Below are positions 4,145 through 63,190 of a stretch of 64,000 nt of DNA, in pieces (the first letter of the stretch is position 1; every line of letters begins with the position of its first letter). The stretch lies in contig JAWOFN010000112.1 in the NCBI GenBank assembly GCA_046497505.1, positions 8,834 to 72,833 of the forward strand, given 5' to 3'. Under the pieces are notes generated by a model. The model was given only the letters and a program-made list of their open reading frames with translations. It was not told where the DNA came from and did no database searches. The position numbers were made by a program, and so were the translations under genes. Source of the DNA: a bacterium (lineage in GTDB: Bacteria > Blakebacterota > Blakebacteria > Blakebacterales > JAWOFN01).

Positions 4145-4642
4145 TCACTCAGTGACGGGGGGGAGCCCTTCCAGTGCCAGGTCCACTTCATCGCACAGCA
4201 TACGCACACAGGAGGGCACGGCCGACCGGACCACCGGGGAGAGGGTTCCCCCGGGGCCGATCCAGGAGGGTTCCACCCCCAGAATCACCAGCCTTGAGGG
4301 AAGCATTTCCAGCCGCTCCCCCAGGTGCACCAGGTCGAGGAGGTCCCCCTCATGGAGGGAGATGCCCGGGAGTTCCTTCGCCGACCGCACATCCTCCGGG
4401 GTGAATCGGCGCATCGTACCGGGGGACTCGCCCATCCGGGCGCAGTCCACCAGGATGGCGGCGCTGCGTCCCTCCATGGCATAGAGCAGGGACATGCCCC
4501 CGGTACCCGCATCCACCGCCTCCACCAGGGGCGATGGTCCCCTGGAGGCGAGAAAGGCCTCTACCACCGCCGGACCCACCCCCTCGTCACCCATGAGGGG
4601 GTTGCCGATCCCTGCCACGAGGAGGGGCGGGGCGGTATGCAT
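4145..4642 (-). CDS. hydrogenase maturation endopeptidase (HyaD/HybD/HycI family)
   Basis: LLVAGIGNPLMGDEGVGPAVVE matches the GxGNxxxxDDGxG signature. The ATG overlaps the large-subunit stop codon in TGATG, indicating translational coupling. Confidence 0.8.
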   Translation of the reverse strand: MHTAPPLLVAGIGNPLMGDEGVGPAVVEAFLASRGPSPLVEAVDAGTGGMSLLYAMEGRSAAILVDCARMGESPGTMRRFTPEDVRSAKELPGISLHEGDLLDLVHLGERLEMLPSRLVILGVEPSWIGPGGTLSPVVRSAVPSCVRMLCDEVDLALEGLPPVTE

Positions 4643-5952
4643 CAGACGAACTCCACCTCCAGATGATGGGTCGAGCAGGAGATGCACGGGTCGTAGGAAC
4701 GGACCAGCATCTCCAACAGGGACCGGAGTCCGTCCTCTCCCCTGTCGAGGTAGCGCGGGACCAGGGCCTCGAAATCCTTCTGGATGTTGCCATGGTTCTG
4801 GTTGGTGGGGATGCAGATGTTGGCCCTCACGCAGTTCCCCGCCCCGTCGAACTCGTACCGGTGGAACAGGATCCCCCGGGGTGCCTCCACCGATCCCACA
4901 CCTTCCCCGGCCGTGGGCAGGACGGAGGGTTTCTCGGGACGGATCCCCCGGGTGAGGAGTTCGTCGATGAGGAGCAGGCCGTGCTCAACGGTCTGGACGA
5001 CCTCCACCACCTGGGCGGCGTTGTTCATATAGGGGTTCGTACACCCCTTTTCGAGTCCCAGTTCCCCGGCCGTCTTGAGCGCCAGGGGGAGGAGCGCGTC
5101 CGCATTGAGGTTGAAGCGTGCCAGGGCCCCCACCGCGTAGGCGTCCCGATGCCACTTCGTCCACTTGGCGGTGGACAGGGGACTGACGTATTCGTTCGCC
5201 ACGCGCTCGAACTCCTGCACCGGGACCCGTTCGTCGGTATCGGAAGAGCCGATGCGCCCTTCGTAGAAGGGATAGGCGCCCTCTTCCACCAGGGCGATGT
5301 ATTCGGTCTCCCGCTGGAAGTCCGGGAAACCGTCCGCGAGGGATGCCACTGCCTCCGCGATCGCCACCAGGTCGGGGACCACCGCCTGGAAACGCTCCTT
5401 GAAGTCGAGGAGCTGGGCGGCTGTCGGGAGGCGGGTGAAGCCCCCCGGAACGACGGTGACCGGATGGGTCTGCCTGCCCCCCAGCCAGTCCATGACCTCG
5501 TTGCCGAGCCGGTGGGCCCGTATGATGGTCTTCACCAGGTCGGGATGACTCTCCAGGAGCGGCACCACGCTGGGCTGACCCAGCAGGTCGGGTGCTGCCA
5601 GGTAGCCCACGTGGAGCACGTGGCTCTCCATGTACTCACCGTAGTGGAGCAGGGTCCGGAGCATCCGGGTCTGTTCCGAGACCCCGATGTCCATGGCATC
5701 CTCGATGGCCTTGACGGCTGCCAGGGAATGGCTCACCGAGCAGATCCCGCAGATCCTGCTAACGATGGTCTGGATGTGTTCCCAGGAACGGTCCCGCACC
5801 ATGGCCTCGAAGAACCTGGGGGCCTCGGGGACCTGCCACTCCACCCTCTCGATGGTCCCGTCGGAGGCCCGCACCGCGATGTTGCCGTGACCTTCGACCC
5901 GGGTGACATGATGGACATCGATCTGCACGGTGCGTGATGTGGTCTTCGCCAT
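4642..5952 (-). CDS. hydA: [NiFe] hydrogenase large subunit (alpha), group 3b sulfhydrogenase-like
   Basis: N-terminal RVEGHG and RICGICSVSH (RxCGxCxxxH) and C-terminal DPCISCSTHH (DPCxxCxxH) Ni-Fe ligand motifs. About 437 aa, short as in group 3. Start ATG at 5952 has a GAGGAG RBS. The ORF track begins at GTG 5967. Confidence 0.85.
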   Translation of the reverse strand: MAKTTSRTVQIDVHHVTRVEGHGNIAVRASDGTIERVEWQVPEAPRFFEAMVRDRSWEHIQTIVSRICGICSVSHSLAAVKAIEDAMDIGVSEQTRMLRTLLHYGEYMESHVLHVGYLAAPDLLGQPSVVPLLESHPDLVKTIIRAHRLGNEVMDWLGGRQTHPVTVVPGGFTRLPTAAQLLDFKERFQAVVPDLVAIAEAVASLADGFPDFQRETEYIALVEEGAYPFYEGRIGSSDTDERVPVQEFERVANEYVSPLSTAKWTKWHRDAYAVGALARFNLNADALLPLALKTAGELGLEKGCTNPYMNNAAQVVEVVQTVEHGLLLIDELLTRGIRPEKPSVLPTAGEGVGSVEAPRGILFHRYEFDGAGNCVRANICIPTNQNHGNIQKDFEALVPRYLDRGEDGLRSLLEMLVRSYDPCISCSTHHLEVEFV

Positions 5953-5963
5953 GGTCGGGCTCC

Positions 5964-6695
5964 TCACTTGGTTCCGAAGAGGTGCATGCGTCGCTCCAGG
6001 TCCTCTTCGGTCTTACCGTACATGTCCATGATCTCCTTGGCGGCCCCCACGTTGGCATAGGGGATGTATCCCCTGCATCCATAGCAGTAGGCTCCCGCCG
6101 AGGGACAGCAGGCGTCACATCCCGCCCGGGTGATGGGCCCCAGACACACCTCGTCGTACTCGAATCGACAGACGTTCCCTCGGGCCTTGCACTCCACACA
6201 CACCGGGTAGTCGGGGATCACCGGGGTCTTCCCGATGGCCAGGCAGCGGACCACGTAGGCGAACTCCCGGGGGTTGATGGGACACCCTTCGACCCGGTAG
6301 TCCACCTTCACCACCTCGTCGAGGGCCTTGGTGGGGGCGGTGTCCAGGTGAGGCATGCCGGCGTCATCACCGTATACCGTCTCCCGGACCTCCTCCATGG
6401 CGTACCGGTTCTTCAGCCGGTTGACCCCGCCTCGGGTCGCGCACGCCCCGAGGGCCACCAGTATCTCGGCACGGTCCCGTATGGCCCGGAGCCGCTCCTC
6501 GTCCTCCCGCCGCGTGATGGAGCCCTCGACGATGGCGATGTCGTATTCGTTGCTCTGCTCGCTCATCGCCTCCCGCCAGGCCACGGGCTGCACCACGGTG
6601 AGCAGGTCGAGGAGCTGCTCCTCCAGGTTCACGATCTGGAGCTGACAGCCCTCACAGCAGGCGAAGTCGAAGATCGCGACACGGGGCTTGCTCAT
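5964..6695 (-). CDS. hydD: [NiFe] hydrogenase small subunit (delta), group 3b
   Basis: Start MSKPRVAIFDFACCEGCQ with the proximal FeS cluster cysteines, plus further Cys clusters (CPINPREF, CVECKARGNVC, CDACCPSAGAYCYGC). Its ATG overlaps the gamma-subunit stop in TGATG. Confidence 0.8.
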   Translation of the reverse strand: MSKPRVAIFDFACCEGCQLQIVNLEEQLLDLLTVVQPVAWREAMSEQSNEYDIAIVEGSITRREDEERLRAIRDRAEILVALGACATRGGVNRLKNRYAMEEVRETVYGDDAGMPHLDTAPTKALDEVVKVDYRVEGCPINPREFAYVVRCLAIGKTPVIPDYPVCVECKARGNVCRFEYDEVCLGPITRAGCDACCPSAGAYCYGCRGYIPYANVGAAKEIMDMYGKTEEDLERRMHLFGTK

Positions 6696-10309: not shown

Positions 10310-10678
10310 ATGGAGGACGTGGAGGCTGCGGTCCAGAAGTTCCAGCGCGAGCTGAACTCGGGCACGGTGGCGCTGGTGCTGCTCAGCGTCCTGGAGGCCT
10401 CGAAAATGCCCCTGTACGGCTACGAGATCGCCCGGCGCCTGGACCGGGACGACGAAGAGGAGCCCCGGGTGAAGCAGGGCACCCTCTACCCCGTCCTGCG
10501 GTCCCTGGAGAGCGGCGGACTGCTGCGCAGCGAGGTCGAGCCCTCATCCTCCGGCCCGCCGAGGCGGTACTACCGGGTGACCGGCCTGGGGCAGGAGGTC
10601 CTGGCGGCCTGGGAGGAACGCTGGGAGAAGACGCGTGATTTCGTGGACGAGATCCGGAAGGGAGCAAACGGTGGATGA
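10310..10678 (+). CDS. PadR family transcriptional regulator
   Basis: Winged-helix signature LYGYEIARRL...GTLYPVLRSLESGGLL. AGGAGGA RBS. Size is typical of the family. Confidence 0.8.
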   Translation: MEDVEAAVQKFQRELNSGTVALVLLSVLEASKMPLYGYEIARRLDRDDEEEPRVKQGTLYPVLRSLESGGLLRSEVEPSSSGPPRRYYRVTGLGQEVLAAWEERWEKTRDFVDEIRKGANGG

Positions 10679-11579
10679 GCGGATCGCATCCTATCTGGAG
10701 TCGCTGAGGCAGGCCCTGGCCGGGGTCGACCCCGCCCTAATGCAAGACGCCCTCTACGACGCGGAAGAGCATCTCCGGAGCGAGATGGAGCAGATGCCGG
10801 AGGCCGAGCGTGAGAAGGCCCTGCCCGCCCTGCTCGAACGATTCGGGGAACCGGAAGAGGTGGCCCGGGCCTATCGGGAGGCGGAGATCCGCCTCCACGG
10901 GCCCTCCCCGGCCGCCGGGGAGCGTACCCCCACGACGCCCTCCGGCCGGCCGCGGCAGGACTACGGCCTGGGCCCCTTCTTCGGGGTCCTCGTGGACCCC
11001 CACGCCTACGGAGCCCTCTTCTACATGCTCCTCTCCCTCATCACCGGGATCCTCTACTTCACCTGGGTCGTCACCGGGGCGAGCATCTCGGTGAGCTTCC
11101 TCATCCTCATCATCGGTATCCCGATCCTCCTCCTCTTCCTCGCCACCACCCGGGTCTTCTCCTTCGTGGAAGGGCGGATCGTGGAGGCGCTGCTCGGGGT
11201 CCGCATGCCCCGTCGGCATCGCCCCGCCGGCACCGAGGGGCAGTGGCTGGAGCGGATCAAGGAGTGGTTCACCGATGCCCGCACCTGGGCCACCATGCTC
11301 TACATGCTGGTCATGATGCCCCTGGGGATCTTCTACTTCACCCTGGCGGTGACCTGGCTGGGGGTCTCCCTCGGACTCTTCGCCGCACCCTGGGTGCAGC
11401 TCATCGCCGGGGAACCCATCATCCAGTTCGGGTGGGGTACCTACTGGCTGGAGTGGTGGGCGTTCCCCCTGCTCATGGCGGTCGGAGCCCTCCTCGCCGT
11501 CATCGGGCTGCATCTGTTCCGCCTCATCGGGCGGGCTCACGGAACCTTCGCCAAGGCCATGCTGGTGAGCCGGATCTAG
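10635..11579 (+). CDS. DUF1700-like N-terminal domain fused to a 4-6 TM membrane domain (putative PadR-associated sensor or effector)
   Basis: N-terminus IASYLESLRQALAGVDPALMQDALYDAEEHL resembles DUF1700 proteins that pair with PadR. The C-terminal half is hydrophobic. The true start may be the in-frame GTG at 10671, since the ORF overlaps the PadR end. Confidence 0.55.
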   Translation: MISWTRSGREQTVDERIASYLESLRQALAGVDPALMQDALYDAEEHLRSEMEQMPEAEREKALPALLERFGEPEEVARAYREAEIRLHGPSPAAGERTPTTPSGRPRQDYGLGPFFGVLVDPHAYGALFYMLLSLITGILYFTWVVTGASISVSFLILIIGIPILLLFLATTRVFSFVEGRIVEALLGVRMPRRHRPAGTEGQWLERIKEWFTDARTWATMLYMLVMMPLGIFYFTLAVTWLGVSLGLFAAPWVQLIAGEPIIQFGWGTYWLEWWAFPLLMAVGALLAVIGLHLFRLIGRAHGTFAKAMLVSRI

Positions 11580-12779
11580 CGCCCGGAGGGGACCGTGACG
11601 GGGAGACCGGTGTGTCGGGGTCCCTCGTGGACCTCCCGGGCCATGTCCCTCTGGAGCATCTCCCGGTTGTAGCGTGCGATCACATCGTTCTTCCGCAGCG
11701 TGCCCAGCAGCTTCCCCTCCTGGGGATCCACCACCGGGATCTCATCGGCTCCGGTCCGTTCGAACTCGTGCATCACCCAGCTCAGGTCGTCCTCCGGCCT
11801 CACCGCCTGCACGTCCGCGGTGGCCAGGGTACAGGAGAGCATCATGGCAAGGATGATCTGGTAGTTCCCGGTGAGTTCGAAGAGCATGAGCACGGCGGTG
11901 AGGGGAGCATGCGTGGCGGCTGCCAGGACCGACCCCATCCCCACCATGGCGTAGGCCCCGCTCTGGGCGGTGGCGAAGGGGGCCCCCTGGACCAGGCTGC
12001 CCACCACGCTGCCCAGCATGACCCCGATGAACAGGCTGGGTGATAGGAGCCCCCCCGACCCCCCCGACCCCAGGGTGAAGGAGGTGGCGGCCACCTTGGC
12101 CAGCATGACGAGGAACAGGAGGAGGAGCGGGGAAGCGGGCTCCGGGCTCAGAACGGTCTCGATGGCGTCGTAGCCCACCCCCAACACCTGGGGGAAGCCC
12201 ACGGCCACCAGTCCCAGGAGCGCACCCCCCGCCGCGGGCCGCGCCCAGGCCGGCAGGTACTCCAGATGGTGGAACAGCCTCGTGGCGGTGTTCAGGGCAC
12301 GTATGAACACCAGGGCCACCAGGGCGGCCAGCAGGCCGAGGAGGGCATAGGGAAGGAACTCCCAGACGCTCACGATGTGGAAGACCCCCTCCGGGATGGC
12401 GAAGGTGGGCTGGGTGCCGAAGAAAGAGCGTCCCACCGCCGTACCCAGTACGCTCGCCACGACCACGGGAGTGAAGTGGGAGACGCCGAAATCCCCCAGG
12501 ATCACCTCGGCCGCGAAGATGGCCCCGGCGATGGGTGTGTTGAAGGTGGCTGAGATCCCTCCGGCGGCCCCCGAGGCCACCAGGATCCTCACATACCGGC
12601 CCGGGAGCCGGGCGAACGTTCCCAGGGCGGACCCCACCGCGGAGCCGATCTGTACGATCGACGAGCCAGCGGAAGCCCATCGCCCCGAACCCGGTGAGCA
12701 CGCCGGTGACAGCAGCCAGGCCCAGGATCCGGGAGTGCTCACTCTGCCTCAGACGCTTGATGAGGTCCCGGGTACGCAT
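11576..12779 (-). pseudogene. ClC family chloride channel, disrupted by an internal deletion (about 95 codons, including the GSGIP filter segment) with a frame change
   Basis: One frame, from 12779, gives MRTRDLIKRLRQSEHSRILGLAAVTGVLTGFGAMGFRWL, matching the ClC N-terminal helix B. Within a few codons the same DNA in another frame gives GSSIVQIGSAVGS, the GREGPxVQIGxxIG equivalent, and continues through GGISATFNTPIAGAIFAAEV to a C-terminal CBS domain. No intervening GSGIP region is present. Confidence 0.5.
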
Positions 12780-12780
12780 C

Positions 12781-15483
12781 TCAGATCGGAGACCAGCGGC
12801 CGCGGGTAACGAGACCGGCGGCGATGGGGGCCAGGCTCATGAGGCCGACCACACCCCATCCCCGCCAGCCCGGGTCCTCCACGTGGAGCACATGGGCCAG
12901 GGGCGGTACGAAGACCGCGACCACCAGCAGGAGGATGCAGAGCCCCAGGGCCCCCCAGACGTACCGGTTCCGGGTGACCTCGTTCCGGAAGAAACCGGAG
13001 GAGCTCCCCCGCATGTTGAAGACGTGCCAGAGCTGGGCGAATGCAAGGGTCAGGAAGGAGACGGTGATGGCCTGCTGACGGGGGAGCTCCAGCCACAGCA
13101 GCGCCAGGGCCAGGGCACCGAGAACCCCGGTGGTGAAGGCGGTGCCGTAGAAGGCGATCCCGGTCCAGTGACGGCGGGCGAGGATCGGCTCGGACTGCGG
13201 CCGGGGGGGACGCTGCATGACCCCCCGCTCCCCCTCCCCCATGCCCAGGGCCAGGGCCGGGAAGATGTCGGTCACCAGGTTGAGGAAGAGGATCTGGAGG
13301 GGGAGGATGGGCAGTACGGTCCCCACCAGGGAGGCCAGCCCCACCACCATGACCTCGCTGACGTTGCAGGAGAGCAGATAGTAGACGAAGCGCCGGATGT
13401 TCCCGAAGATCACCCGGCCCTGTTCCACCGCCGCCACGATGCTGGAGAAGGCATCGTCCTGGAGGACCATGTCGGCCGCCTCCCGGGCCACCTGGGTACC
13501 CCGCCGTCCCATGGCCACCCCGATGTCGGCCTTCTTCAGGGCCGGGGCATCGTTCACCCCGTCCCCGGTCATGGCCACCACCCGGCCCTCTCTCTGGTGC
13601 AGCTCGATGAGGTCGAGTTTCTGGCCGGGACTCACCCGGGCGAAGACGGGCACATCCAGCATGCGTGCCCGGACCTCGCTCTGGTCCATGTCCGCCCCGG
13701 AGAGCTCCTTCCCCTCCACCACGGCCGGGTCCTCGGTCTCTGTGAGCCCCACCGCCTCGGCGATCCCCAGCGCCGTGAGGGCCTGGTCCCCCGTGACCAT
13801 CACCACCCGGATGCCCGCCGCCTGGCAGCGGTCGAGGGAGGCCCTCACGTCGGTCCTCGGCGGGTCGAGGAGACAGGCCAGTCCAAGGAGCGTGAGGTCG
13901 CCATAGGGGTCGGCCCCTGCATCACCGACCTGCTTCCAGGCCAGGGCGATGATCCGAAGCCCCTCCGCGGCCAGTTCCCGGTTCCGCTCCTCCCACGCCT
14001 CCAGGGCCTCCGGGGTCAGGTCCTCCTCCCCGTCGACCGTCCGGACCCGGATGCATACCTCGAAGACCGCTTCCGGAGCGCCCTTCACCGCGGTCCGGAA
14101 GGCTCCCTCCCCCCGGTGTACCGTGGCCATCATGTTCCGATTTGGGTCGAAGGCCACCTCGCGCTCTTCGGGCAGGTCCTCCAGGAGTCCGTCTCGGGTC
14201 AGACCGGCCCGGGCAGCACCCACCAGCAGGGCCGCTTCCAGGGGGTCCCCGGTGGTATCTCCCGGTCCCTCTTCGCCGAGGCTCGCGTTGTTGCACAGGG
14301 CCGCCGCGACGAGGGCGTCGCGGATGGGCCCCTCGTTCGGCGGGACCTCCTCCTCCCCGGCGAGGAATCGGCCCGGAGCGATGCCCCCCGGCCCTCCTCC
14401 CTCCTCCTCCGGGGTCTCGAGCGTGACCGTGCGGTCCGCCAGGGCCAGGCGCGTGAGGGTCATCCGGTTCTCGGTGAGGGTCCCCGTCTTGTCGGTACAG
14501 ATGATCGAGGTGGCCCCCAGGGTCTCCACGCTGGAGAGTCGGTTGATGAGGGCGTTCCTCCGAGCCATCTCCTGCATGCCCCGGGCCAGGACGATGGTGG
14601 CTACGATGGGGAGACCCTCCGGGATCGTGGCCACGGCCAGGGCGATCCCCGTCTCGATCATGAGGAAGAGTTCCTTGCCCCCGGCGATACCGCTCACCGT
14701 CACCGCAGCCGCGATGCCCAGGGTCACCCAGATGAGCCGGCGGCCCAGACGGTCCAGACGTTCTTCCAGGGGGGTGGCCTCCTCCTCGGCCGACTCCACC
14801 ATGGCGGAGATCCGCCCCAGTTCGGTGTCCATACCGGTGTGGACCACCAGACCCTCACCGGAACCCCGTGTCAGGGCGGTCCCCTTGTAGAGCATGCCGG
14901 TCCGCCCGGCCAGCTCCGCCTCCTCGCCGACCGGTCCCTCCCCCTTGCTGACCGGAAGGCTCTCACCCGTGAGCGCGGACTCGTCGGCCTGGAGTTCGTT
15001 GGACTCACGGATACGGAGGTCGGCCACCATGACATCACCGCCCTCGAGGAGCACCACGTCCCCGGGTACGAGATCCTCCGCATCCACCTCTTCCACCCGG
15101 CCCTCCCGTCGCACCCGGGCCGAGACCCTGCCCAGTTCGTAGAGGGCCTCCATGGAACGGACCGCCCGGAGTTCGGTGAAGAAGCCGATGGCGGAGTTGA
15201 TGAGGATGACAGCCAGGATGGCCCAGCCCTCCAGCGTCTCCCCGTAGGCGAAGGCCACCGCCGAGGCGGCGGCCAGCAGGCCGATGATCAGGCTCTTGAA
15301 CTGTGCGATGAGGATGGAGAGGGCGCTGCGTGTCTCGTGTCGGCGGAGTTCGTTGCTGCCGAACCGCTCCCTGCGATCCGACACCTGCCCATCCGTCAGT
15401 CCCTCATGCGCATCCACACCCAGTCGGTCGGCCAGTTCCCCGGCCGGGAGGGACCAGGTCGTACCCGGGATCTCATGCTCCAC
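12781..15483 (-). CDS. P-type cation-transporting ATPase (type IIA/IIB-like, Ca2+/Mg2+/cation family)
   Basis: DKTGTLT phosphorylation motif, TGDGVNDAPALKKADIGVAMG hinge and an N-terminal cation_ATPase_N-like segment. 900 aa with 10 predicted TM helices. GTG start. Confidence 0.85.
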   Translation of the reverse strand: MEHEIPGTTWSLPAGELADRLGVDAHEGLTDGQVSDRRERFGSNELRRHETRSALSILIAQFKSLIIGLLAAASAVAFAYGETLEGWAILAVILINSAIGFFTELRAVRSMEALYELGRVSARVRREGRVEEVDAEDLVPGDVVLLEGGDVMVADLRIRESNELQADESALTGESLPVSKGEGPVGEEAELAGRTGMLYKGTALTRGSGEGLVVHTGMDTELGRISAMVESAEEEATPLEERLDRLGRRLIWVTLGIAAAVTVSGIAGGKELFLMIETGIALAVATIPEGLPIVATIVLARGMQEMARRNALINRLSSVETLGATSIICTDKTGTLTENRMTLTRLALADRTVTLETPEEEGGGPGGIAPGRFLAGEEEVPPNEGPIRDALVAAALCNNASLGEEGPGDTTGDPLEAALLVGAARAGLTRDGLLEDLPEEREVAFDPNRNMMATVHRGEGAFRTAVKGAPEAVFEVCIRVRTVDGEEDLTPEALEAWEERNRELAAEGLRIIALAWKQVGDAGADPYGDLTLLGLACLLDPPRTDVRASLDRCQAAGIRVVMVTGDQALTALGIAEAVGLTETEDPAVVEGKELSGADMDQSEVRARMLDVPVFARVSPGQKLDLIELHQREGRVVAMTGDGVNDAPALKKADIGVAMGRRGTQVAREAADMVLQDDAFSSIVAAVEQGRVIFGNIRRFVYYLLSCNVSEVMVVGLASLVGTVLPILPLQILFLNLVTDIFPALALGMGEGERGVMQRPPRPQSEPILARRHWTGIAFYGTAFTTGVLGALALALLWLELPRQQAITVSFLTLAFAQLWHVFNMRGSSSGFFRNEVTRNRYVWGALGLCILLLVVAVFVPPLAHVLHVEDPGWRGWGVVGLMSLAPIAAGLVTRGRWSPI

Positions 15484-15669
15484 GATGCGTCTGCTCCGGA
15501 CTGGGATGGCAGGGTCGGTCCTCGGTCATCGAATGCAAGGTACCCCGGGTGATGTCGCGGCTCAACCGGACGAGCGTGTCGGTCCCGGGCCGAGGTGGCG
15601 GAACCGGGACACGGAACCTACCTTGGGGCCGACCCCATCGACGAACCACAGGAAGAAGGGTGTGCAGGC

Positions 15670-17067
15670 ATGAAGGTGACCTTCCGGGGAGCTGCCCGCA
15701 CGGTGACCGGATCGATGCACCGGGTGGACACCGCGGACGGGAAGACGGTGCTGCTGGACTGCGGGCTCTACCAGGGACGGCGCAAGAAGGCCGCGAAGAT
15801 CAATCGCGAGATGCCGCTCCCGGTGGAGGAGATCGACGCCGTCCTCCTCTCCCACGCTCACATCGATCATTCCGGACTGCTCCCCCGTCTCTACAAGGAA
15901 GGTTACCGCGGTCCTGTCTACGCCACACCGGCCACGGCGGACCTGAGCGGCATCATGCTCAGGGACTCCGCCCACATCCAGGAAGCAGATGTACGGTACG
16001 TGAACAAGAAGAACGAGGCGAGGGGGCTCCCTCCCGTGGAGCCCCTCTACGAGATCCCCGACGCGGAGGGGGTGAGCGGTCTCTTCATCCCCGTGGACTG
16101 CCGGGAGGTCTTCACCCCCGTCGAGGGCCTGGAGGTGGAGTACCGCGACGCCGGTCACATACTCGGCTCGGCCAGCATGACGCTCATGGCCCGGGAGGAG
16201 GAGCGCGAAGTCCGTCTCGGCTTCACCGGGGACGTGGGCAGGCCGGACCGCCTCATCATCCGTGACCCCCAGCCCATGATGGACTGCGACTGGCTCATCA
16301 CCGAGTCGACCTACGGCGGACAGGTACATGACCCGCCGGAGAGCGCGAAGAAGCGGCTCGAAGAGGTCATCGGCCGCACCGTGGAACGGGGGGGGAAGGT
16401 CATCATCCCCGCCTTCAGCGTGGGCCGCACCCAGGAGATCGTCCACACCCTGGACCAGCTCTGGAACGAAGGACGGCTGCCCATGATCCCCGTCTACGTG
16501 GACAGCCCCCTGGCGGTGAACGCCACCGACATCTACAAGGACCATCCGGAGTGCTACGACCAGGACCTGAGGGAGTACATACTGAGCGATGCCGACCCCT
16601 TCGGGTTCCGCAGACTGACCTACGTGAGGAACGTGGAGGAGTCGAAGGCCCTGAACGGGCGCAGGGACCCCATGGTCATCATCAGCGCTTCGGGGATGTG
16701 CGAGGGGGGACGGATCCTCCACCACTTGAAGAACAACATCCACGACGAACGCAACACCGTCCTCATGGTGGGCTATTCCGCCGAACACACCCTGGGCCGG
16801 AGGATCTCCGAGCGCAGGAGCAGGGTCCGGATCTTCGGGACCGAGTACGCGCTGAGAGCCCAGGTAGAGGTCATGGACGCCTATTCCGCCCATGCGGACC
16901 AGCCTGAACTCCTGGACTTCCTGGAGCCCCTGCATACCGCACGGCTCAAGGGGGTCTTCCTGGTCCACGGGTCGCTGGACCGGCAGGAGGCGATGAGGAA
17001 GGAACTCCGGCGAAAGGGCTGCGACAACGTGATGGTACCGGAGCGGGGCCAGAGCTTCACGCTCTGA
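15670..17067 (+). CDS. MBL-fold metallo-hydrolase of the beta-CASP RNA-metabolising family
   Basis: HAHIDHSG metallo-beta-lactamase motif, a beta-CASP region and an RNA-specificity C-terminal domain (YSAHADQPELLDFL). ORF 15595..17067 trimmed to ATG 15670 (MKVTFRGAARTVTGS). Confidence 0.75.
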   Translation: MKVTFRGAARTVTGSMHRVDTADGKTVLLDCGLYQGRRKKAAKINREMPLPVEEIDAVLLSHAHIDHSGLLPRLYKEGYRGPVYATPATADLSGIMLRDSAHIQEADVRYVNKKNEARGLPPVEPLYEIPDAEGVSGLFIPVDCREVFTPVEGLEVEYRDAGHILGSASMTLMAREEEREVRLGFTGDVGRPDRLIIRDPQPMMDCDWLITESTYGGQVHDPPESAKKRLEEVIGRTVERGGKVIIPAFSVGRTQEIVHTLDQLWNEGRLPMIPVYVDSPLAVNATDIYKDHPECYDQDLREYILSDADPFGFRRLTYVRNVEESKALNGRRDPMVIISASGMCEGGRILHHLKNNIHDERNTVLMVGYSAEHTLGRRISERRSRVRIFGTEYALRAQVEVMDAYSAHADQPELLDFLEPLHTARLKGVFLVHGSLDRQEAMRKELRRKGCDNVMVPERGQSFTL

Positions 17068-17098
17068 GTCCTCCGGCCCCGCCGATCGGTCTCGCTTC

Positions 17099-18793
17099 TC
17101 AGTGTCCTCCCGCCTGACCGTCCTTGCGGGGGTCCGATGCCGCCGCCCACCCGGGTGCCAGGCGCAGGATCGCCTGGGCCCCGCCGAAGGCCGTTCGGCC
17201 CTCGTCGGTGAGTTCGTGACCCATCCGGGTCAGCTCCCCACGGACCCGCCCCGGGATCGGAGCCTCCAGCGCCACCCTCCGGCCGCCCAGGTGCCGGAAT
17301 CGGGGGGCATCCACCGCCTCCTGCAGATCCATGCCGAAGACCAGGAGGTTGAGCAGGAGCTGCACGTGTCCCTGGGGCTGCATCGACCCCCCCATGACCC
17401 CGAAGGCCAGCCACGGCTCGATCCCCCCCTCGCTCCCCGTGCGGGTCACGAACCCCGGGATCAGGGTGTGGAAGGGGCGCTTCCCGGGTCCCACGGTGTT
17501 GGGATGGTCCGGCTCGGTGGTGAAGCCGGCTCCCCGGTTCTGCAGCGCGAACCCGGTCCCCGGTACCACGACCCCCGAACCGAACTCCCAATAGATGCTG
17601 TTGATGAAGGAGACCATGTTGCCGCGGCTGTCAGCCGCCGTCAGGTAGATGGTCTCGCTGGAGAGGTCCAGTTCCCCGGGCGCTGCTCCCTCGGAGGCCT
17701 CCCGGGGGTGGATGGCCTCCCTCCGGCGGCGGAGGAAGTCCTCCTCCAGCAGGTCCTCGGGGGAGGCCTCCATGCTGGTCGGGTCCCCCACGTAGGCCTC
17801 CAGGTCGGCGAAGGCCTGCTTCTTCGCCTCGATGAGGTGATGCAGGTAGGCGGGGCTGTTGTGCCCCATCCCCTCCAGATCGAAGGTTTCCAGTATCCCG
17901 AGCATCTCCAGGGCCGCGATGCCCTGGCCGTTGGGGGGAAGTTCCCACACGGTGTATCCATGGAAGGGGAGCCCCACCGGCTCCACCCATTCCACCCGGT
18001 GGGCCCTCAGGTCCTCCGGGGTGAGGAACCCGCCCTCCTGCTGGAGATGCTCCGCGATCGTGCGGCCCAGCTCGCCGCCGTACAGGTGACCCGGCCCCCG
18101 ACGGGCGATGGCCCTCAGCGTCGAGGCGTAGTCCGGGTTGCGGAACCACTCCCCCGCCCGCGGGGTGGTCCCGTCTTCCATGAGGTAGGTGTCCCGCGCC
18201 CCCTCGTCCCTCGTCAGACGCCCTGTCTCGGCCGCCCACTGACGAGCGATCTTGGGGGAGACGGGGAACCCCTCCTCCGCGAGGCGGATGGCCGGTCCCA
18301 GTGCCTGGGCGAGTTCGATCGTGCCGAACCTCTCCAGCAGGGCCGACCAGCCGGAGAGGGCCCCGGGGACCGTAACCGGCTCGGCCCCGAAGAGGGGGAC
18401 CCGGTCCAGGTCCCGCTCCCGCAGGGCCTGGCGGGTCATCCGGGACCCGGAGCGCCCGCTGGCGTTCAGACCGATGAGCGCGCCCTCCTCCGCCGACCAC
18501 ACGATGGCGAAGACGTCACCGCCGATCCCGGTCATGTGGGGTTCGGTGACGGTCAGGACCGCTGCCGCGGTCACCGCCGCGTCGATCGCGTTGCCCCCCT
18601 GCTCCAGGACCGCCAGTCCCGCGGAGGTGGCAAGGGGCTGGCTGGCAGCCACCGCGCCACGGGGGGCGTAGACGGTGGAACGTCCTGCCAGGGTCGTGGG
18701 ACGGTCCTCCGATCCCCCCTCCCCGCAGGCACCGGCCAGAAAGAGGAGGAGGACGAGGGGAACAGCCGCGGCTGCGGGAACGTATTGTGACAT
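17099..18793 (-). CDS. ggt: gamma-glutamyltransferase
   Basis: Signal/lipoprotein N-terminus. TGIGGDVFAIVW and the autoprocessing region ETIYLTAADSRGNMVSFINS, followed by GSGVVVPGTGFALQNRGAGF, are typical of GGT. Confidence 0.85.
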   Translation of the reverse strand: MSQYVPAAAAVPLVLLLFLAGACGEGGSEDRPTTLAGRSTVYAPRGAVAASQPLATSAGLAVLEQGGNAIDAAVTAAAVLTVTEPHMTGIGGDVFAIVWSAEEGALIGLNASGRSGSRMTRQALRERDLDRVPLFGAEPVTVPGALSGWSALLERFGTIELAQALGPAIRLAEEGFPVSPKIARQWAAETGRLTRDEGARDTYLMEDGTTPRAGEWFRNPDYASTLRAIARRGPGHLYGGELGRTIAEHLQQEGGFLTPEDLRAHRVEWVEPVGLPFHGYTVWELPPNGQGIAALEMLGILETFDLEGMGHNSPAYLHHLIEAKKQAFADLEAYVGDPTSMEASPEDLLEEDFLRRRREAIHPREASEGAAPGELDLSSETIYLTAADSRGNMVSFINSIYWEFGSGVVVPGTGFALQNRGAGFTTEPDHPNTVGPGKRPFHTLIPGFVTRTGSEGGIEPWLAFGVMGGSMQPQGHVQLLLNLLVFGMDLQEAVDAPRFRHLGGRRVALEAPIPGRVRGELTRMGHELTDEGRTAFGGAQAILRLAPGWAAASDPRKDGQAGGH

Positions 18794-18935: not shown

Positions 18936-20060
18936 CTACATGAGGGTGGCCAGGAAGATCCCCGCCGCCACCGCCGAACCGATGACCCCCGAGACGTTGG
19001 GGGCCATGGCCTGCATGATCACGTAGTTCTCCGGGTCCTCCTGGGCGCACACCATCTGACAGACCCTGGCGGAGTCCGGTACGGCAGATACCCCGGCGGC
19101 TCCGATCACCGGGTTGATCTTCTCCCTGCTGACCAGGTTGAGCAGCTTGGCGAACATCAGCCCCGCCGCGGTGGCGACCGCGAAGGAGGCCGCCCCCAGG
19201 GCGAAGATCATGATGCTCTCGGGCGTGAGGAACCGGCTCGCGTCGGTGGAGGTGCCCACGGTGAACCCGAGCAGGATGGTGATGATATCGATGAAGGCGG
19301 TCCGGGCCGTCTTGGCCAGGCGCTCCGTGACCCCCGATTCTTTCAGGAGGTTCCCGAAGAAGAGCATCCCAAGCAGGGGGATGGAGCCGGGTGCGATGAA
19401 TGCGGTGAGCAGGAAGGCGACCACGGGGAAGATCATGCGCAGCCTGGCACTCGGCTGGGGGGAGGGCTTCATCCGGATCAGCCGTTCCTCCCGGCTGGTG
19501 AGGAGCCGGATGATGGGGGGCTGTATCACCGGCACCAGGGCCATATAGGAATAGGCCGCCACCGCGATGGCACCCAGGTACTGCGGGGCCATCTGCGAGG
19601 AGAGGAAGATGGCGGTGGGACCGTCCGCGCCCCCGATGATGCCGATGGCGGCGGCCTCGTGCATCTCGAAGCCGAGAGCCAGCGACCCCAGGAAGGTCAG
19701 GAAGATACCGGCCTGAGCCGCCGCACCCAGCAGGATGAGCCGGGGGTTGGCCAGCATGGCCGAGAAGTCGGTCATCGCCCCGATACCCAGGAAGATCAGG
19801 GGCGGGTACCACCCCTGGCGGACACCCTGGTAGAGGATGCTGAGGACGCTCCCCTCCTCGTACACCCCGAGGTTCATCCCCGCCTGGAAGGGGATGTTGC
19901 CCACGAGGATCCCGAAACCGATGGGGACCAGCAGCAGGGGTTCGTAGTCCTTGCTGATGGCCAGGTAGATGAACACGCACCCCACCACGATCATGATGAG
20001 GTTGCCCAGGGTGAAGTGCCCGAGGGCACCGGCCTGGAGGAACTCGCGAAGGATGGTCAT
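18936..20060 (-). CDS. Na+-translocating decarboxylase membrane beta subunit (OadB/MmdB/GcdB family)
   Basis: 374 aa polytopic protein with conserved family segments (GAMTDFSAMLANPR, IGGADGPTAIF, NLLKESGVTERL). Confidence 0.85.
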   Translation of the reverse strand: MTILREFLQAGALGHFTLGNLIMIVVGCVFIYLAISKDYEPLLLVPIGFGILVGNIPFQAGMNLGVYEEGSVLSILYQGVRQGWYPPLIFLGIGAMTDFSAMLANPRLILLGAAAQAGIFLTFLGSLALGFEMHEAAAIGIIGGADGPTAIFLSSQMAPQYLGAIAVAAYSYMALVPVIQPPIIRLLTSREERLIRMKPSPQPSARLRMIFPVVAFLLTAFIAPGSIPLLGMLFFGNLLKESGVTERLAKTARTAFIDIITILLGFTVGTSTDASRFLTPESIMIFALGAASFAVATAAGLMFAKLLNLVSREKINPVIGAAGVSAVPDSARVCQMVCAQEDPENYVIMQAMAPNVSGVIGSAVAAGIFLATLM

Positions 20061-31023: not shown

Positions 31024-31905
31024 ATGATCGAGCGGGACCGTTCGCGGACTCCGGGTCCCTCCCGACTCCTCACCAGCGCTCTCGCGGGAGCAGCCGCGGG
31101 TACGGCGGTGGGGCTGGGTGCATGGTGGGCCCTGGACCAGCTCATCCTGGCCGCCTCGGGTACCGGGGCCCCGGCAGGACTGGCCCTCGCCCTGGCCTCT
31201 CTGGGGGGCAGCATCACCGCCCTGCTCCTGGCCTACCGGCTCCTCATGCGGCGCGCTTCGGAGAGTGACCTGCTCCGGCTGGTGGTGGAGTCCACCGCCG
31301 CGGGGGTCTGGATCGTGGATCGGGAATTCGACTCGGTCTGGCTCAACGACAGCATGCGCCGGCTCCTGGGCGAGGAGCCGACCAGCGGCAGCACCGTCTT
31401 CGACTACTTCGGTGAAGAGGACCGCCGAAAACTGGAAGAGGCCCGGCAAGAGCGCCGGCGGGGAATATCCAGTGCCTATCAGGCCACGGTCCGCCGCCCG
31501 GACGGTACGGAACGGGTCGTCTACATCATCGGGACCCCCATATACGGCCCCGACGGCCGACACCTCGGTTCCTTCGGGTTCTTCATGGACATCACCGACC
31601 AGCAGAAGGCCGCCGAGGAAGCCGCCGAGGAGGCCCGTGTCGAGACCCTCATGGCCACCGTGGCCCGTCTCAACCACAAGATCAACAACGCCCTGATGGT
31701 GATACGCGGGCAGGCGGAGGTCAGCATACGGAAGGTGGAAGAGGAGGGTCCCGTGCACGCGTTCCAGCGGGTGATCGACCAGGTGGACCTGATCACCGGC
31801 GAGCTCAAGTCCCTCAGCGAACTCAGGGAGGTCCAGCTGGAGGACTATCTGGGCTCCCGTCCCATCCTGAGCGTTCCGGAACCGGGGACCACCCCGGAGG
31901 AGTGA
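31024..31905 (+). CDS. membrane-anchored PAS domain protein with a HisKA-like H-box but no ATPase domain
   Basis: Two N-terminal TM segments. A PAS-like core (VWIVDREFDSVWLNDSMRRLLG...GTPIYGPDGRHLGSFGFFMDITD). Then ARLNHKINNAL (H-box-like). The protein ends about 60 aa later without N/G boxes. Confidence 0.6.
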   Translation: MIERDRSRTPGPSRLLTSALAGAAAGTAVGLGAWWALDQLILAASGTGAPAGLALALASLGGSITALLLAYRLLMRRASESDLLRLVVESTAAGVWIVDREFDSVWLNDSMRRLLGEEPTSGSTVFDYFGEEDRRKLEEARQERRRGISSAYQATVRRPDGTERVVYIIGTPIYGPDGRHLGSFGFFMDITDQQKAAEEAAEEARVETLMATVARLNHKINNALMVIRGQAEVSIRKVEEEGPVHAFQRVIDQVDLITGELKSLSELREVQLEDYLGSRPILSVPEPGTTPEE

Positions 31906-31956
31906 GGAGCTGGATCCCTTTCGCTCCCGGCTGCTCATACCTATATTTCCTGAATC

Positions 31957-32982
31957 ATGCCTATACCGGTCCGTCCCCGTACGTCCTCATACTGCAGGGT
32001 CATCCTGCTCCTCCTGCCACTGGCCCTCACCGCTGCTCTTCCCGGGTGCACCCGGACGCCGCAGCAGCTGGAGGCCCGGGGAGACGAACTCCTCTCCGAG
32101 GGCCGCTTCGGACAGGCGATGGCCGCCTACAAGAAAGCCGTCGAACTATCCCCGGAGGACCTCGGACTGAAGCTGAAAGTGGCCGGGGCCTACCGTGACC
32201 GGGGCCTCCGGTCGGAGGCCATCGAACGATACGAGACCATCCTGGAAGAGCACCCAGAGAGCCTGGAAGCCCGGCGCGAGCTGGCTCTGCTCCTGGCGGC
32301 AGAGGGTCTCCGCACCCGGGCGATGGAACAGATCGGGATCCTGAAGGATCGGATGCCCGGGTCCCCCGTCCCCTGGAAGCTCGAAGCCCGGATGGCCCAG
32401 CAGGACGAGGACTGGCGGGATGCCGTCACCCACTGGCGACAGGCCCTCCGCCGGGACGACCAGGACGCGGAGGCCTATCACATGATGGGCCGGGCCCACA
32501 TGGAGCTGGGGGACTACCCTTCTGCCCTGGCCGCACTGCAGCAGGCCGTCCGGGTCGAGGAGGGATACGACGACGCCTATTTCGAACTGGGTCTGACCCT
32601 CATCGAGCTGAACCGGATCGACCGGGCCGAAGAGGCCTACCGCAACTACATCGACACCCATCCCCGCGACGCACAGGCCTACTACAAGCTGGGCAACGCA
32701 CTGCTCAGCAAGGGATATGCCGAGCAGGCCGTCGAGCAGTACCGGAGGGCCGTGGCCATCCGTCCCGGATACGCCGACGCACACTTCAACCTCGGCATGG
32801 CGCTGCTCCAGCAGGACCGGGAAGAAGAGGCCGCCAAGGCCTTCGAAGCGGTGCTCATCCACGCTGCCCGCGACGCGGTGAAAGACAACGCGCGGAGCAT
32901 GCTGAGGGTCATCCGGCAGGGCGGCCGAGAGGTCCCCGAAGACGGGGTGAATCGGCTTGACCCCCTCTTGAGCCGAACGTAG
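31957..32982 (+). CDS. TPR repeat lipoprotein
   Basis: Lipobox-like LALTAALPGCTR. At least 7 TPR-like repeats (AYKKAVELSP, AYHMMGRAHMELGDY, AYYKLGNALLSKGY, AHFNLGMALLQ). Confidence 0.7.
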   Translation: MPIPVRPRTSSYCRVILLLLPLALTAALPGCTRTPQQLEARGDELLSEGRFGQAMAAYKKAVELSPEDLGLKLKVAGAYRDRGLRSEAIERYETILEEHPESLEARRELALLLAAEGLRTRAMEQIGILKDRMPGSPVPWKLEARMAQQDEDWRDAVTHWRQALRRDDQDAEAYHMMGRAHMELGDYPSALAALQQAVRVEEGYDDAYFELGLTLIELNRIDRAEEAYRNYIDTHPRDAQAYYKLGNALLSKGYAEQAVEQYRRAVAIRPGYADAHFNLGMALLQQDREEEAAKAFEAVLIHAARDAVKDNARSMLRVIRQGGREVPEDGVNRLDPLLSRT

Positions 32983-33038
32983 GTTGCCCGCAGTCTAGGA
33001 GTCCCCGCCCGGGGGATTCCCGACGCGCCGTACCGACG

Positions 33039-33054
33039 CCCCCCTGCAGGGGGG
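33039..33054. terminator. perfect 16-bp GC palindrome CCCCCCTGCAGGGGGG between the TPR gene and the Lon-like gene
   Basis: Read directly. Potential stem-loop or attenuator 57 nt after the TPR stop and 45 nt before the Lon-like start. Confidence 0.3.
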
Positions 33055-33098
33055 TCGGCGGCTTCCTCCTCGCCATCGAAGGCTGCAAGGAGCGACGC

Positions 33099-35528
33099 AT
33101 GCCCGAAGTGCCGGTCGCCCTCTCCTCCGACCGACTCTACGCACGCTGCGACCCCTCCGACCTGCCTGCGGAGTCCACCGCGAACATCCCCCCCGATGTG
33201 GGGATCATCGGTCAGCCCCGGGCCGCCGACGCCATCGAGTTCGCACTGGGGGTCGATGCTGAGGGCTACAACCTCTACGTGGCCGGTCAGACCGGCACCG
33301 GACGGAACACCAGCGTCCGGATCGCGGTCAAGGACGCCGCAGTCGACCGACCCGTACCCGACGACTGGTGCTACGTACACAACTTCGAACAGGAGGACCG
33401 ACCTCGCGCCATCCGTCTGCCTGCCGGACAGGCCTGCCAGCTGCAGGAGGACATGGAGGCCCTGATCGAAGAGCTGAAGGCCGAGATCCCGAAGGCCTTC
33501 GAGGGACGCGCCTACGAAGAACGAAGGGCACGGCTCCTCAAGGACCTCCAGGAACGGAGGGACAGCCTCCTGGAGGAGTTCAAGGAGGAGGCGGAGGAAC
33601 GGGGCTTCACCGTCGAGCAGTCCGGAGGGGGGCTCCTCACCCTCCCGATGAAGGACGGCAGGCCCATGTCCAGCCAGGACTGGGAGGAACTCAGCGAGGA
33701 GGAGAAGACGGACCTGGAGGAGCGGCAGGAGGACCTCCAGCAGGTGATGCGCGAGATCACCCGCCGGGTACGGGAGATGGAGAAGGAGGCCCGCAGCCGC
33801 CTCTCCGACCTGGAACGTGAGATCGCCATGCTGCCCGTCTCGGCGGCCGTCGACGAGCTCAAGGAGAAATACGCGGACCAGGAAGTGGTCCTGGAGTACC
33901 TGGAGGCCGTCAAGGAGGAGATCCTCGAGAACCTGGACGATTTCAAGGAGGACAACGACCAGCAGGTGGCCATCCCCGGCCTGCGCATGAGCCGGGGCGG
34001 CGACAGGTTCGTCCGTTACCAGGTGAACGTCCTGGTAGACAACAGCGGCACCGAGGGCGCTCCGGTCGTCTTCGAGACCAACCCCACCTACTACAACCTC
34101 ATCGGCCGCCAGGAGTACCGTGCTCAGATGGGGGCCATGACCACCGACTTCACCATGATCAAGGCAGGTGCCCTGCACCGGGCGAACGGCGGCTATCTGG
34201 TGGTCCAGGCACTGGATGTGCTCCGCAACCCGATGTCGTGGGAGGCCCTCAAGCGGGCCGTCAAGAACAGGGAGATCGTCCTCGAGGACCTGAACGAGCA
34301 GTACCGCCTTATCCAGACCCAGGGGCTCAAGCCCCAGCCCGTCCCGCTGGATACCAAGGTCATCCTGGTGGGATCCCCCTATCTCTACCATCTCCTCTAC
34401 GCCTACGACGAGGATTTCAGGAAGATCTTCAAGGTGAAGGCCGACTTCGGACTCCTGATGGACCGGGAGGGGGATGCGATCGCCACGTACGCCGGCTTCA
34501 TCAGCAGCAGGGTCCACGAGGAGGGGCTGAAGCACTTCGACCGGTCGGCCATGGCCCGCGTGATCGAACACGGCCACCGCATGGTGTCGGATCAGACAAG
34601 GCTCTCCACCCGCTTCATCGACGTGGCGGATCTGCTGAGGGAAGCGGACTACTGGTCGCGGAAGGCGGGTGCGAGCAGGGTATCGGCCAAGCACGTGGAC
34701 CGGGCCATCGACGAGAAGGTCCACCGCTCCAACAGGATCGAGGAGCGCCTCCGCGACCTCATCGCGGAAGGCACCATCCTGGTGGACACCGAGGACGCGG
34801 TGGAAGGGCAGATCAACGGGCTGGCCGTTCTCGACCTCGGGGATTATCAGTTCGGGAAACCGAGCCGGCTCACCGCCCGTGTCTACATGGGCCGGTCGGG
34901 GATCATCCAGATCGACCGGGATTCGAAACTCGCGGGCAATATCCACAACAAGGGTGTGATGATCCTCCAGGGTTTCTTCGGGGAACGCTATGCCAGGAAC
35001 GCCCCCATCGCGCTCTCAGCGAGCCTGACATTCGAACAGTTGTACGACGGCGTGGAAGGCGACTCCGCCTCTTCCACCGAGCTGTACGTCCTGCTCTCCG
35101 CCCTGGCACGCGTCCCCCTCCGCCAGGACCTGGGGGTGACGGGGTCGGTGAACCAGCGGGGAGAGATCCAGGCCATCGGCGGAGTGAACGAGAAGGTGGA
35201 GGGTTGGTATCACACCTGCAAGATCGTGGGACTGAGCGGGAAGCAGGGTGTGCTGATCCCGGAATCCAACGTGCATAACCTCATGCTCAAACAAGAGATC
35301 CGGGACGCCGTGGATGAGGGGACGTTCCACATCTATCCCATCAAGCACGTCGACCAGGGGATCGAACTCTTGACGGGCATCCCGGCGGGCGAACTGGATG
35401 AAGAGGGGTCCTACCCCGTCGGAACCATCAACTACCGAGTGCAGAAGAAGCTGGAAAACCTGGCCGAAGGACTCCGGAAGTCCTCGCCCGGGTCGGACGA
35501 CAGCTTCGGCCTGCGCTCCAGCACCTGA
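33099..35528 (+). CDS. Lon-like protease with degenerate AAA+ module and coiled-coil insertion (LonC-type, probably ATP-independent)
   Basis: C-terminal Lon S16 protease domain (GDSASSTELYVLLSAL... with catalytic Ser, GVNEKVEGWYHTCK). The N-terminal AAA-like region has the degenerate Walker A GQTGTGRNTS, with no Lys. A long charged helical insertion (EERRARLLKDLQERRDSLLEE...EKEARSRLSDLEREIA) is present. AAGGAG RBS. Confidence 0.7.
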   Translation: MPEVPVALSSDRLYARCDPSDLPAESTANIPPDVGIIGQPRAADAIEFALGVDAEGYNLYVAGQTGTGRNTSVRIAVKDAAVDRPVPDDWCYVHNFEQEDRPRAIRLPAGQACQLQEDMEALIEELKAEIPKAFEGRAYEERRARLLKDLQERRDSLLEEFKEEAEERGFTVEQSGGGLLTLPMKDGRPMSSQDWEELSEEEKTDLEERQEDLQQVMREITRRVREMEKEARSRLSDLEREIAMLPVSAAVDELKEKYADQEVVLEYLEAVKEEILENLDDFKEDNDQQVAIPGLRMSRGGDRFVRYQVNVLVDNSGTEGAPVVFETNPTYYNLIGRQEYRAQMGAMTTDFTMIKAGALHRANGGYLVVQALDVLRNPMSWEALKRAVKNREIVLEDLNEQYRLIQTQGLKPQPVPLDTKVILVGSPYLYHLLYAYDEDFRKIFKVKADFGLLMDREGDAIATYAGFISSRVHEEGLKHFDRSAMARVIEHGHRMVSDQTRLSTRFIDVADLLREADYWSRKAGASRVSAKHVDRAIDEKVHRSNRIEERLRDLIAEGTILVDTEDAVEGQINGLAVLDLGDYQFGKPSRLTARVYMGRSGIIQIDRDSKLAGNIHNKGVMILQGFFGERYARNAPIALSASLTFEQLYDGVEGDSASSTELYVLLSALARVPLRQDLGVTGSVNQRGEIQAIGGVNEKVEGWYHTCKIVGLSGKQGVLIPESNVHNLMLKQEIRDAVDEGTFHIYPIKHVDQGIELLTGIPAGELDEEGSYPVGTINYRVQKKLENLAEGLRKSSPGSDDSFGLRSST

Positions 35529-43231: not shown

Positions 43232-43493
43232 GGGGCTCCCGAGCAGATGATCGGATGTGTCCTCCCCGGAGTATACAGGCCAGGTCGTACTTCCTTCACC
43301 TGTCCGCATGATGCCCCACGCCTTCCGGTGCGTGACCCACCCGTTCCGGGCGGAACCTCTGAGGAGGAGCGGGGGGCCCTGGTGGATACGGAACGGGGAA
43401 GCTTCCCTGTAGAGGGTACCGTCCCGCCGCATCAGGCCGTAGTATGTACCCTGGATCGAATCCGACTCCGACCGCCAGCCCCGGGAGCACCCG

Positions 43494-46174: not shown

Positions 46175-46256
46175 CCCCCCCGGCATCCCCTCCCCGACCC
46201 GTCCCGGGAACGCCCCGGTGACGGATGGGGTCGGAACCGGAACCGGAGGATCCGTC

Positions 46257-58167: not shown

Positions 58168-58173
58168 GGGCTC

Positions 58174-58971: not shown

Positions 58972-58974
58972 GGC

Positions 58975-59601: not shown

Positions 59602-59628
59602 CGGTACTCCTTACCAGCCTTTCAGGCC

Positions 59629-61802: not shown

Positions 61803-61805
61803 GGG

Positions 61806-62396: not shown

Positions 62397-62399
62397 CCG

Positions 62400-63185: not shown

Positions 63186-63190
63186 GCGGT

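Follow-up and report, generated by a model that had tools for sequence, protein, structure and literature searches.

The 64-kb stretch of contig JAWOFN010000112.1 analysed here (the whole of which is referred to below as the window) carries on its minus strand, at 12779-11576, a damaged ClC gene. We consider it probable, at a rough estimate of 0.7, that what is left here of a ClC-CBS-CBS-TrkA_C anion channel/transporter gene is a young, non-functional pseudogene, made by deletions between short direct repeats (microhomologies). The gene was formerly the last gene of a P-type-ATPase operon. Deletions removed 275 of the 675 codons, the native N-terminus and the rest of the ClC core now lie in different reading frames, and the 388-amino-acid (aa) "chloride channel protein" annotated at this locus is most likely a gene-caller product.

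The two-frame pattern had been noticed in a first-pass annotation made from the sequence alone, which also named a P-type cation ATPase as the adjacent gene. Both observations hold: the pattern is recovered at 12779 and 11576 from the list of open reading frames (ORFs), Pfam matches and ortholog matches, and the neighbour contains the Cation_ATPase_N, E1-E2_ATPase, Cation_ATPase, Hydrolase and Cation_ATPase_C domains. The translation from the native ATG (MRTRDLIKRLRQSEHSRILGLAAVTGVLTGFGAMGFRWLV) corresponds to residues 1-40 of the closest intact orthologs, P0002 and P0003; in tblastn, P0003 residues 1-43 match 12779-12651, and a blastn block joins window 13166-12655 to positions 1-512 of L001, a contig with the intact gene. 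The 345-aa frame that starts at this ATG matched no Pfam family. The 388-aa ORF in the second frame matches Pfam Voltage_CLC with E = 1.1e-72 (profile positions 45-343 of 346) and has a single Pfam CBS match at residues 307-357, while its first 28 residues are the native N-terminus in an out-of-frame reading. Its product, P0001, is 100% identical to MFO7769145.1 ("MAG: chloride channel protein [bacterium]", NCBI source), which is a singleton cluster from a 90,472-nucleotide (nt) contig of a metagenome-assembled genome (MAG). Two candidate starts of this frame, GTG 12742 (with GAGG 4 nt upstream) and GTG 12580 (with GAGGA 5 nt upstream), both lie inside the native reading frame.

Intact counterparts of the gene were found in the same genomic setting. 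P0002 (81% identity) and P0003 (77%) are both 675 aa long and comprise Voltage_CLC (profile positions 1-345), two CBS stretches and TrkA_C (residues 606-672). Their contigs, L001 (JGI) and L002 (Logan), have the order ATPase, 675-aa ClC and convergent sensor gene, and in both of them the upstream gene stops 1 nt before the ClC start, an arrangement as in the window. The convergent gene of L001 matches the sensor gene of the window (window 11577-10806 to L001 2428-3199, 81% nucleotide identity in blastn), and L002 covers only its last 35 nt.

The four deletions and their junctions

The deletions were defined by blastn of the window against L001 and L002, together with protein alignment. Four collinear blastn blocks were obtained, with offsets of 281, 324 and 233 (= 219 + 14) nt that are identical against both relatives, and the protein alignment to the orthologs has clean gaps at the deletions (Table 1). 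Within the coding part, fragment 2 belongs to an 840-nt gapless block with 80-81% identity to L001/L002, and fragment 3 to a 238-nt block with 89-94% identity. The blocks align essentially gap-free, and no small indels were found in the retained 1.2 kb. A tblastn search with P0002/P0003 returned only the three collinear pieces, and neither relocated missing segments nor a second ClC gene was found in the window.

Table 1. Retained pieces, reading frames and deletion junctions of the ClC locus, followed by its neighbouring genes (window coordinates)
Feature	Position	Strand	Length	Description
Fragment 1	12655..12779	-		Native ATG (12779), codons 1-41 in the native frame: cytoplasmic N-terminus and first two thirds of helix B
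Fragment 2	11819..12654	-		Second frame; ClC core from just past GREGP (IVQIGSAVGS...) to the end of helix Q (...MMLSCTLAT)
Fragment 3	11589..11818	-		Second CBS motif and the linker after it (ADVQAVRPEDDLSWVMHEFERTGADEIPVVD ... GLPVTVP)
Native-ATG frame	11742..12779	-	345 aa	40 authentic residues, then ~305 out-of-frame residues rich in Arg/Gly/Pro
Second-frame ORF	11576..12742	-	388 aa	GTG start inside the native reading frame
Deletion 1	junction 12658-12655	-	281 nt (3n+2, frameshift)	Repeat of 2-4 nt (ATCG); loses P0003 residues ~42-134
Deletion 2	junction 11826-11819	-	324 nt (108 codons, in frame)	8-nt repeat TGGCCACC; loses P0003 residues 415-522
Deletion 3a	junction 11592-11589	-	219 nt (73 codons, in frame)	3-nt repeat (TCC); loses P0003 residues 600-672
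Deletion 3b	junction 11579-11576		14 nt, intergenic	Spacer past the stop lost; 4-nt repeat CTAG as in L002
P2-type cation ATPase	12781..15483	-	900 aa	Upstream operon partner, apparently intact; stop 1 nt before the ClC ATG
PadR regulator	10310..10678	+		Convergent, downstream; Pfam match
HAAS/"Putative sensor" membrane protein	10635 or 10671 to 11579	+		Convergent, downstream; Pfam match

At junction 1 two blastn blocks overlap, and their registers lie 281 nt apart in L001 and in L002. The segment of about 95 residues that had been reported missing between the two frames is thus confirmed as an absence of exactly 281 nt, and the equivalent of the GSGIP motif, likewise reported absent, falls inside it. 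That earlier description, of a single deletion, was incomplete: deletion 1 is borne out by the alignment, and the losses of helix R with CBS1 and of TrkA_C had been overlooked. The second frame does not run on as a normal ClC gene into a CBS domain, as had been thought, since two more in-frame deletions (324 and 219 nt) follow and a further 14 nt are missing past the stop. The breakpoints, for which an alignment to intact orthologs had been proposed, have the same registers against L001 and L002. Repair of a single indel, the outcome named in the first-pass annotation as restoring a ClC of roughly 450 aa, was rejected, as 281 nt are gone rather than 1-2 nt. Programmed frameshifting was rejected as well, as it could not restore 94 missing residues.

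The repeat at junction 2, TGGCCACC, is present at both ends of the segment missing from the window (L001 1622 and 1946; L002 1495 and 1819). When deletions of 200-350 nt were simulated at random places in L001/L002, their microhomology averaged 0.8 nt, and a microhomology of at least 8 nt was expected with P ~0.0004-0.0009. Deletion 3a spares the stop and the three codons before it (SGR). At junction 3b the window has CGCTAGATCC, versus CACTAG-GACGTCCGCC-CTAGATCC in L002 and CGCTAG-CGCGGCGGCATCAG-ATCC in L001. A single palindromic CTAG at 11576-11579 now supplies the TAG stop both to the ClC remnant (minus strand) and to the convergent sensor gene (plus strand), and the intergenic space is zero. 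In L001/L002 a spacer of ~10 nt separates the two stop codons, which is likewise too short for a terminator. None of the junctions contains a templated insertion.

Elements lost and selection on the retained codons

Homology of the locus to the core of ClC anion channels/transporters (PF00654, TC 2.A.49) is clear (Voltage_CLC; ClC-ec1/StClC matches at E = 1e-23 to 1e-26), yet helices B-R are not complete in one frame, owing to the 281-nt frameshifting and the 324-nt deletions. Motif positions were taken from the alignment of P0003 to the StClC structure 1KPL. Deletion 1 costs the gene helices C-E and the end of helix B, together with the G(S/H)GVP loop (the GSGIP equivalent) and GREGP with the gating Glu. 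The Ser-centre loop (G[HS]GV[PS] in this subfamily) is therefore absent from the window copy and present in P0002-P0005. A GREGP equivalent had been read in the second frame in the first-pass annotation; this motif, which contains E148 of ClC-ec1 and is invariant in our alignment (A1), is deleted, and the residues aligned in its place, SAGSS, of which "GSS" precedes IVQIG, are left-flank sequence out of frame. Deletion 2 runs from the Q-R loop across helix R, with its central Tyr, the linker and CBS1, and takes the first strand of CBS2 with it. The lost Tyr (P0003 Y426, in SIYT) aligns to the Tyr of StClC PLYS, equivalent to Y445 of ClC-ec1. One CBS stretch is consequently left in the window ORF, versus the two of P0002/P0003 (a tandem pair, or Bateman module). 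Deletion 3a removes the whole TrkA_C domain, and no match to TrkA_C (PF02080) was obtained in the 388-aa ORF. The GxFxP loop at the N-terminus of helix N is kept, as GGLLSPSL, which aligns with GGIFAPML of StClC (1KPL) and ClC-ec1.

Both homology and gene order place the locus in the ClC-CBS-CBS-TrkA_C subfamily, and, as judged from its sequence, it appears to lack most of what a functional member has. It combines a disrupted reading frame with the loss of essential residues, as a pseudogene does. The remnant is probably non-functional, because three of four anion-coordinating elements, helix R, half of the Bateman module and TrkA_C are gone, and because translationally coupled ribosomes coming from the ATPase stop would, past codon 41, be in the wrong frame as well.

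To the extent that it can be measured, decay has not reached the 400 retained codons. The ratio of nonsynonymous to synonymous substitution rates (dN/dS) over these codons was 0.14 between the window and L001 and 0.28 between the window and L002, and 0.165 for the intact pair. Unique changes at columns where the other four sequences agree number 4 in the window copy, 6 in P0002 and 7 in P0003. Tajima relative-rate tests with P0004 and P0005 as outgroups gave p = 0.19-1.0 (not significant). Neither an excess of amino-acid change nor relaxed selection was thus detected in the 400 retained codons, and for this reason the deletions are either not biological or young by comparison with the ~15-18% protein divergence that separates the gene from its nearest relatives. 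This result fits a very young pseudogene or an artefact, the two explanations already offered in the first-pass annotation as a recent pseudogene or an assembly collapse. The former agrees with the intact syntenic orthologs, with a frame that no single indel could restore and with the lack of a relaxation signal; a classical repeat collapse is unlikely with junction repeats of 2-8 nt.

Origin of the damage and its alternatives

The rest of the window is in good condition. A gene map guided by GC content at third codon positions (GC3) revealed dense coding across all 64 kb, and apparent coding gaps at 29.4-31.0 kb and 51.2-53.0 kb contain ordinary genes. Among 20 other large genes of the window that were scanned, most have end-to-end Pfam coverage (e.g. 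G_glu_transpept 2-512 of 512, Carboxyl_trans 1-493 of 493, OAD_beta 2-348 of 349 and Na_H_Exchanger 4-373 of 375). Neither the gene map nor the Pfam coverage of these 20 genes revealed another broken gene in the window. The damage is local to the ClC gene. Window-wide assembly damage was rejected on these grounds.

If the deletions are natural, they would have arisen by slipped-strand mispairing (replication slippage) or by microhomology-mediated end joining at direct repeats of 2-8 nt. Since deletion 1 also shifts the frame, translation from the native, ATPase-coupled ATG would give 40 authentic residues and then ~305 nonsense residues. The events were possibly stepwise, perhaps aided by selection against a still-translated aberrant membrane protein, or may alternatively represent one complex template-switch event. 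In bacterial pseudogenes, microhomology flanks the deletions, and sizes divisible by 3 are over-represented among them (Danneels et al. 2018, PMC6054270). Because the codon periodicity of microhomologies favours multiples of 3 (PMC6054270), the two in-frame deletions are unremarkable. Young pseudogenes are removed quickly by deletion, and selection against a still-translated aberrant product has been argued for those of Salmonella (Kuo & Ochman 2010, PMC2916853).

Several points weigh against a young pseudogene formed in this way. Three deletions of 219-324 nt with zero small indels in 1.2 kb constitute an unusual size spectrum, given that 81 of 104 deletions in a broad-taxon set were <=15 nt (PMC6054270). 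Four events in ~2 kb without an excess of substitutions require a very recent burst or a single complex event. The frame was kept by both downstream deletions, which could hint at residual selection; under neutrality the chance of this is ~1/9, and higher given the known multiple-of-3 bias. Finally, neither contig scans nor exact-product look-ups turned up an independent assembly carrying any of the junctions. A first scan of genome contigs found nothing, a profile-based scan of genome contigs returned only relatives at ~45% identity and one 1.5-kb partial contig at 52%, and a scan of metagenome contigs returned only L001 again. Exact-product matches were not found for P0001, for the 345-aa and 334-aa alternatives, for the two sensor starts, for PadR or for the ATPase; the sole exact-product match was to the beta-CASP neighbour, on a contig that stops short of the ClC gene.

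This last point bears on the possibility that the organism has an intact 675-aa gene and that the deletions come from library amplification, from chimeric or low-coverage joining, or from the choice of a minor, deletion-bearing haplotype. Such an artefact would suit a MAG contig whose ClC product is a singleton and whose junctions are known from one assembly; it would account for retained sequence that is indistinguishable from a functional gene and for four clustered large deletions without small indels, which are odd for natural decay, and polymerase template switching in vitro also exploits microhomology. De Bruijn or overlap collapse, on the other hand, requires repeats at least as long as the k-mer or the read overlap, and the junction repeats of 2-8 nt are far below that length. 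No other damage is seen in the 64 kb, and no intact allele with >81% identity was found among 5.8 billion clustered proteins. Moreover, an independent Logan contig (L086, run SRR31818007) of 2,694 nt is 100% identical to window 14655-17348, which argues for a high base-level quality of this DNA. An artefact is thus rather unlikely in our judgement. Run SRR31818007, given this identity, contains the genome in question and is usable for read mapping; no relevant literature was found on this run or on the combination of ClC, TrkA_C and CBS.

Stepwise decay may also be set against a one-step origin, in which all four deletions would stem from a single replication-repair event with serial forward template switches, resembling microhomology-mediated break-induced replication (MMBIR) or fork stalling and template switching (FoSTeS). 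The junctions are clustered in ~1.1 kb of the window (~2 kb of ancestral sequence), collinear and in the same orientation, each with a short microhomology and without accompanying point changes or small indels, all of which would suit such an event. Independent microhomology deletions yield an identical end product, though, a single sequence gives no ordering or timing of events, and the junctions are free of the templated insertions that often accompany MMBIR. We hold a one-step origin to be rather unlikely. The broader proposition, that the deletions are the footprint of one complex template-switching repair event or of positively selected, rapid shrinkage of a toxic, still-translated, ATPase-coupled membrane-protein pseudogene, appears distinctly unlikely.

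A functional product is the least plausible of the alternatives. Here a shortened membrane protein (helices F-Q and one CBS), started at GTG 12742 or internally, would be kept by selection, e.g. for a modulatory or dominant-negative role as a subunit. In its favour, neither of the two in-frame deletions closes the 388-aa frame, dN/dS is at the low level of the intact orthologs, and the candidate starts have the upstream GAGG and GAGGA given above. Against this, the low dN/dS over synonymous divergences (dS) of 0.4-0.66 mostly reflects history before the deletions, and the candidate starts sit inside the frame of the native, translationally coupled ATG. The protein would have to work without three of four anion-coordinating elements and without helix R, and with one CBS motif, which normally works as a pair (Bateman modules). 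Its architecture was seen in no other protein, P0001 being a singleton and the relatives listed mostly ~570-680 aa long. A selected short protein is therefore very improbable, and the young, non-functional remnant is the reading retained below.

Annotation, other genes of the window and known systems

For annotation, the consequence is that MFO7769145.1 should be flagged as a pseudogene and not as a 388-aa chloride channel, since such remnants can contaminate family alignments and counts of domain architectures. Unless there is a further copy beyond the window, this lineage is probably now without its ATPase-linked ClC. As a case of gene decay driven by deletions at short direct repeats, the locus is a neat one. 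Should the deletions prove to be one complex event or selected shrinkage, they would give a natural snapshot of the near-immediate erasure of a dead gene in bacteria; with all four junctions on single molecules and none in sister strains, the locus would make a modest case study of one-step complex deletion or of fast selective removal of a pseudogene.

Ion-translocating systems are abundant in the window and include, besides the ATPase, a protein with a partial hydrogenase match, a Nuo/Mrp-like cluster and OAD_beta (18936-20060). The protein with the hydrogenase match (4642-5967, minus strand) has 441 aa and aligns to the NiFeSe hydrogenase large subunit over no more than the first 78 positions of the profile. 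The Nuo/Mrp-like cluster is long (53002-63539, minus strand), with three Proton_antipo_M subunits and a Complex1_49kDa homolog. Two tandem paralogs at 37543-39840 and 39933-42200 (plus strand; 765 and 755 aa), each with Na_H_Exchanger, TrkA_N and PTS_EIIA_2, represent a cation/proton antiporter fused to a PTS EIIA-type regulatory domain. Three ORFs with coding-like GC3, at 42215-43924 (minus), 45347-46849 (minus) and 46877-48169 (plus), encode 569, 500 and 430 aa and matched no Pfam family at E <= 1e-5; second-position GC is unusually high in the first two (0.57 and 0.62). Neither tRNA genes nor Rfam families (at the gathering threshold) were found in the whole 64 kb.

The family to which the remnant belongs has the architecture ClC-CBS-CBS-TrkA_C (PF00654, PF00571 twice and PF02080; ~656-680 aa) and includes P0002-P0005 and ~45%-identical homologs in Gemmatimonadota, Calditrichota, Desulfobacterota and other MAGs. 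MAGs from many phyla share this ~670-aa architecture at ~45% identity (profile-based contig scan), which makes the subfamily an established, widespread one. Its gene neighbourhood varies: in contig L004 the neighbour of the intact ClC gene (P0005) is a PNPOx-family gene in place of the P-type ATPase, so local gene order was rearranged between lineages. A few kb downstream of that ClC gene, L004 also has a block encoding a PAS-like protein, a ~330-aa protein and a LonC-type protease (11169-14037; window 31024-35528).

Like the family members in L001/L002, the window remnant directly follows a P-type ATPase. It is 77-81% identical to P0002/P0003 over the retained parts and keeps helices F-Q, the GxFxP-type loop and CBS2; unlike them, it is without 275 of 675 codons and has its N-terminus in another frame. 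Of the two H+/Cl- exchangers with solved structures, ClC-ec1 of E. coli (PDB 1OTS) is matched by the remnant at residues 146-433 only (helices F-Q), and StClC of Salmonella (1KPL) by the intact ortholog P0003 at residues 16-451. The equivalents of S107, E148 and Y445 of ClC-ec1 are deleted in the window copy; ClC-ec1, unlike the intact relatives, is itself without CBS or TrkA_C. At two positions the subfamily itself differs from ClC-ec1. The Ser-centre (S107 in ClC-ec1) is His in most members (GHGVPEV in P0003-P0005; GSGVS in P0002), and Val (in FAAEVILGDF) aligns with the Glu-in residue, E203. At least 600 loci in species-representative genomes match the pattern G[HS]GV[PS][ED]VME, and the transport mode of this subfamily may merit attention.

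The locus resembles the young bacterial pseudogenes described previously (PMC6054270, PMC2916853) in its frame-disrupting deletion, in the intactness of the gene in relatives, in its short junction repeats, in deletion sizes that are multiples of 3 and in a rapid loss of size shortly after inactivation. It is unlike the typical ones in that three of its four deletions exceed 200 nt and small indels are absent, while typical spectra are dominated by deletions of <=15 nt (PMC6054270). It is probably an ordinary gene remnant, set somewhat apart only by how large its deletions are and how closely they cluster.

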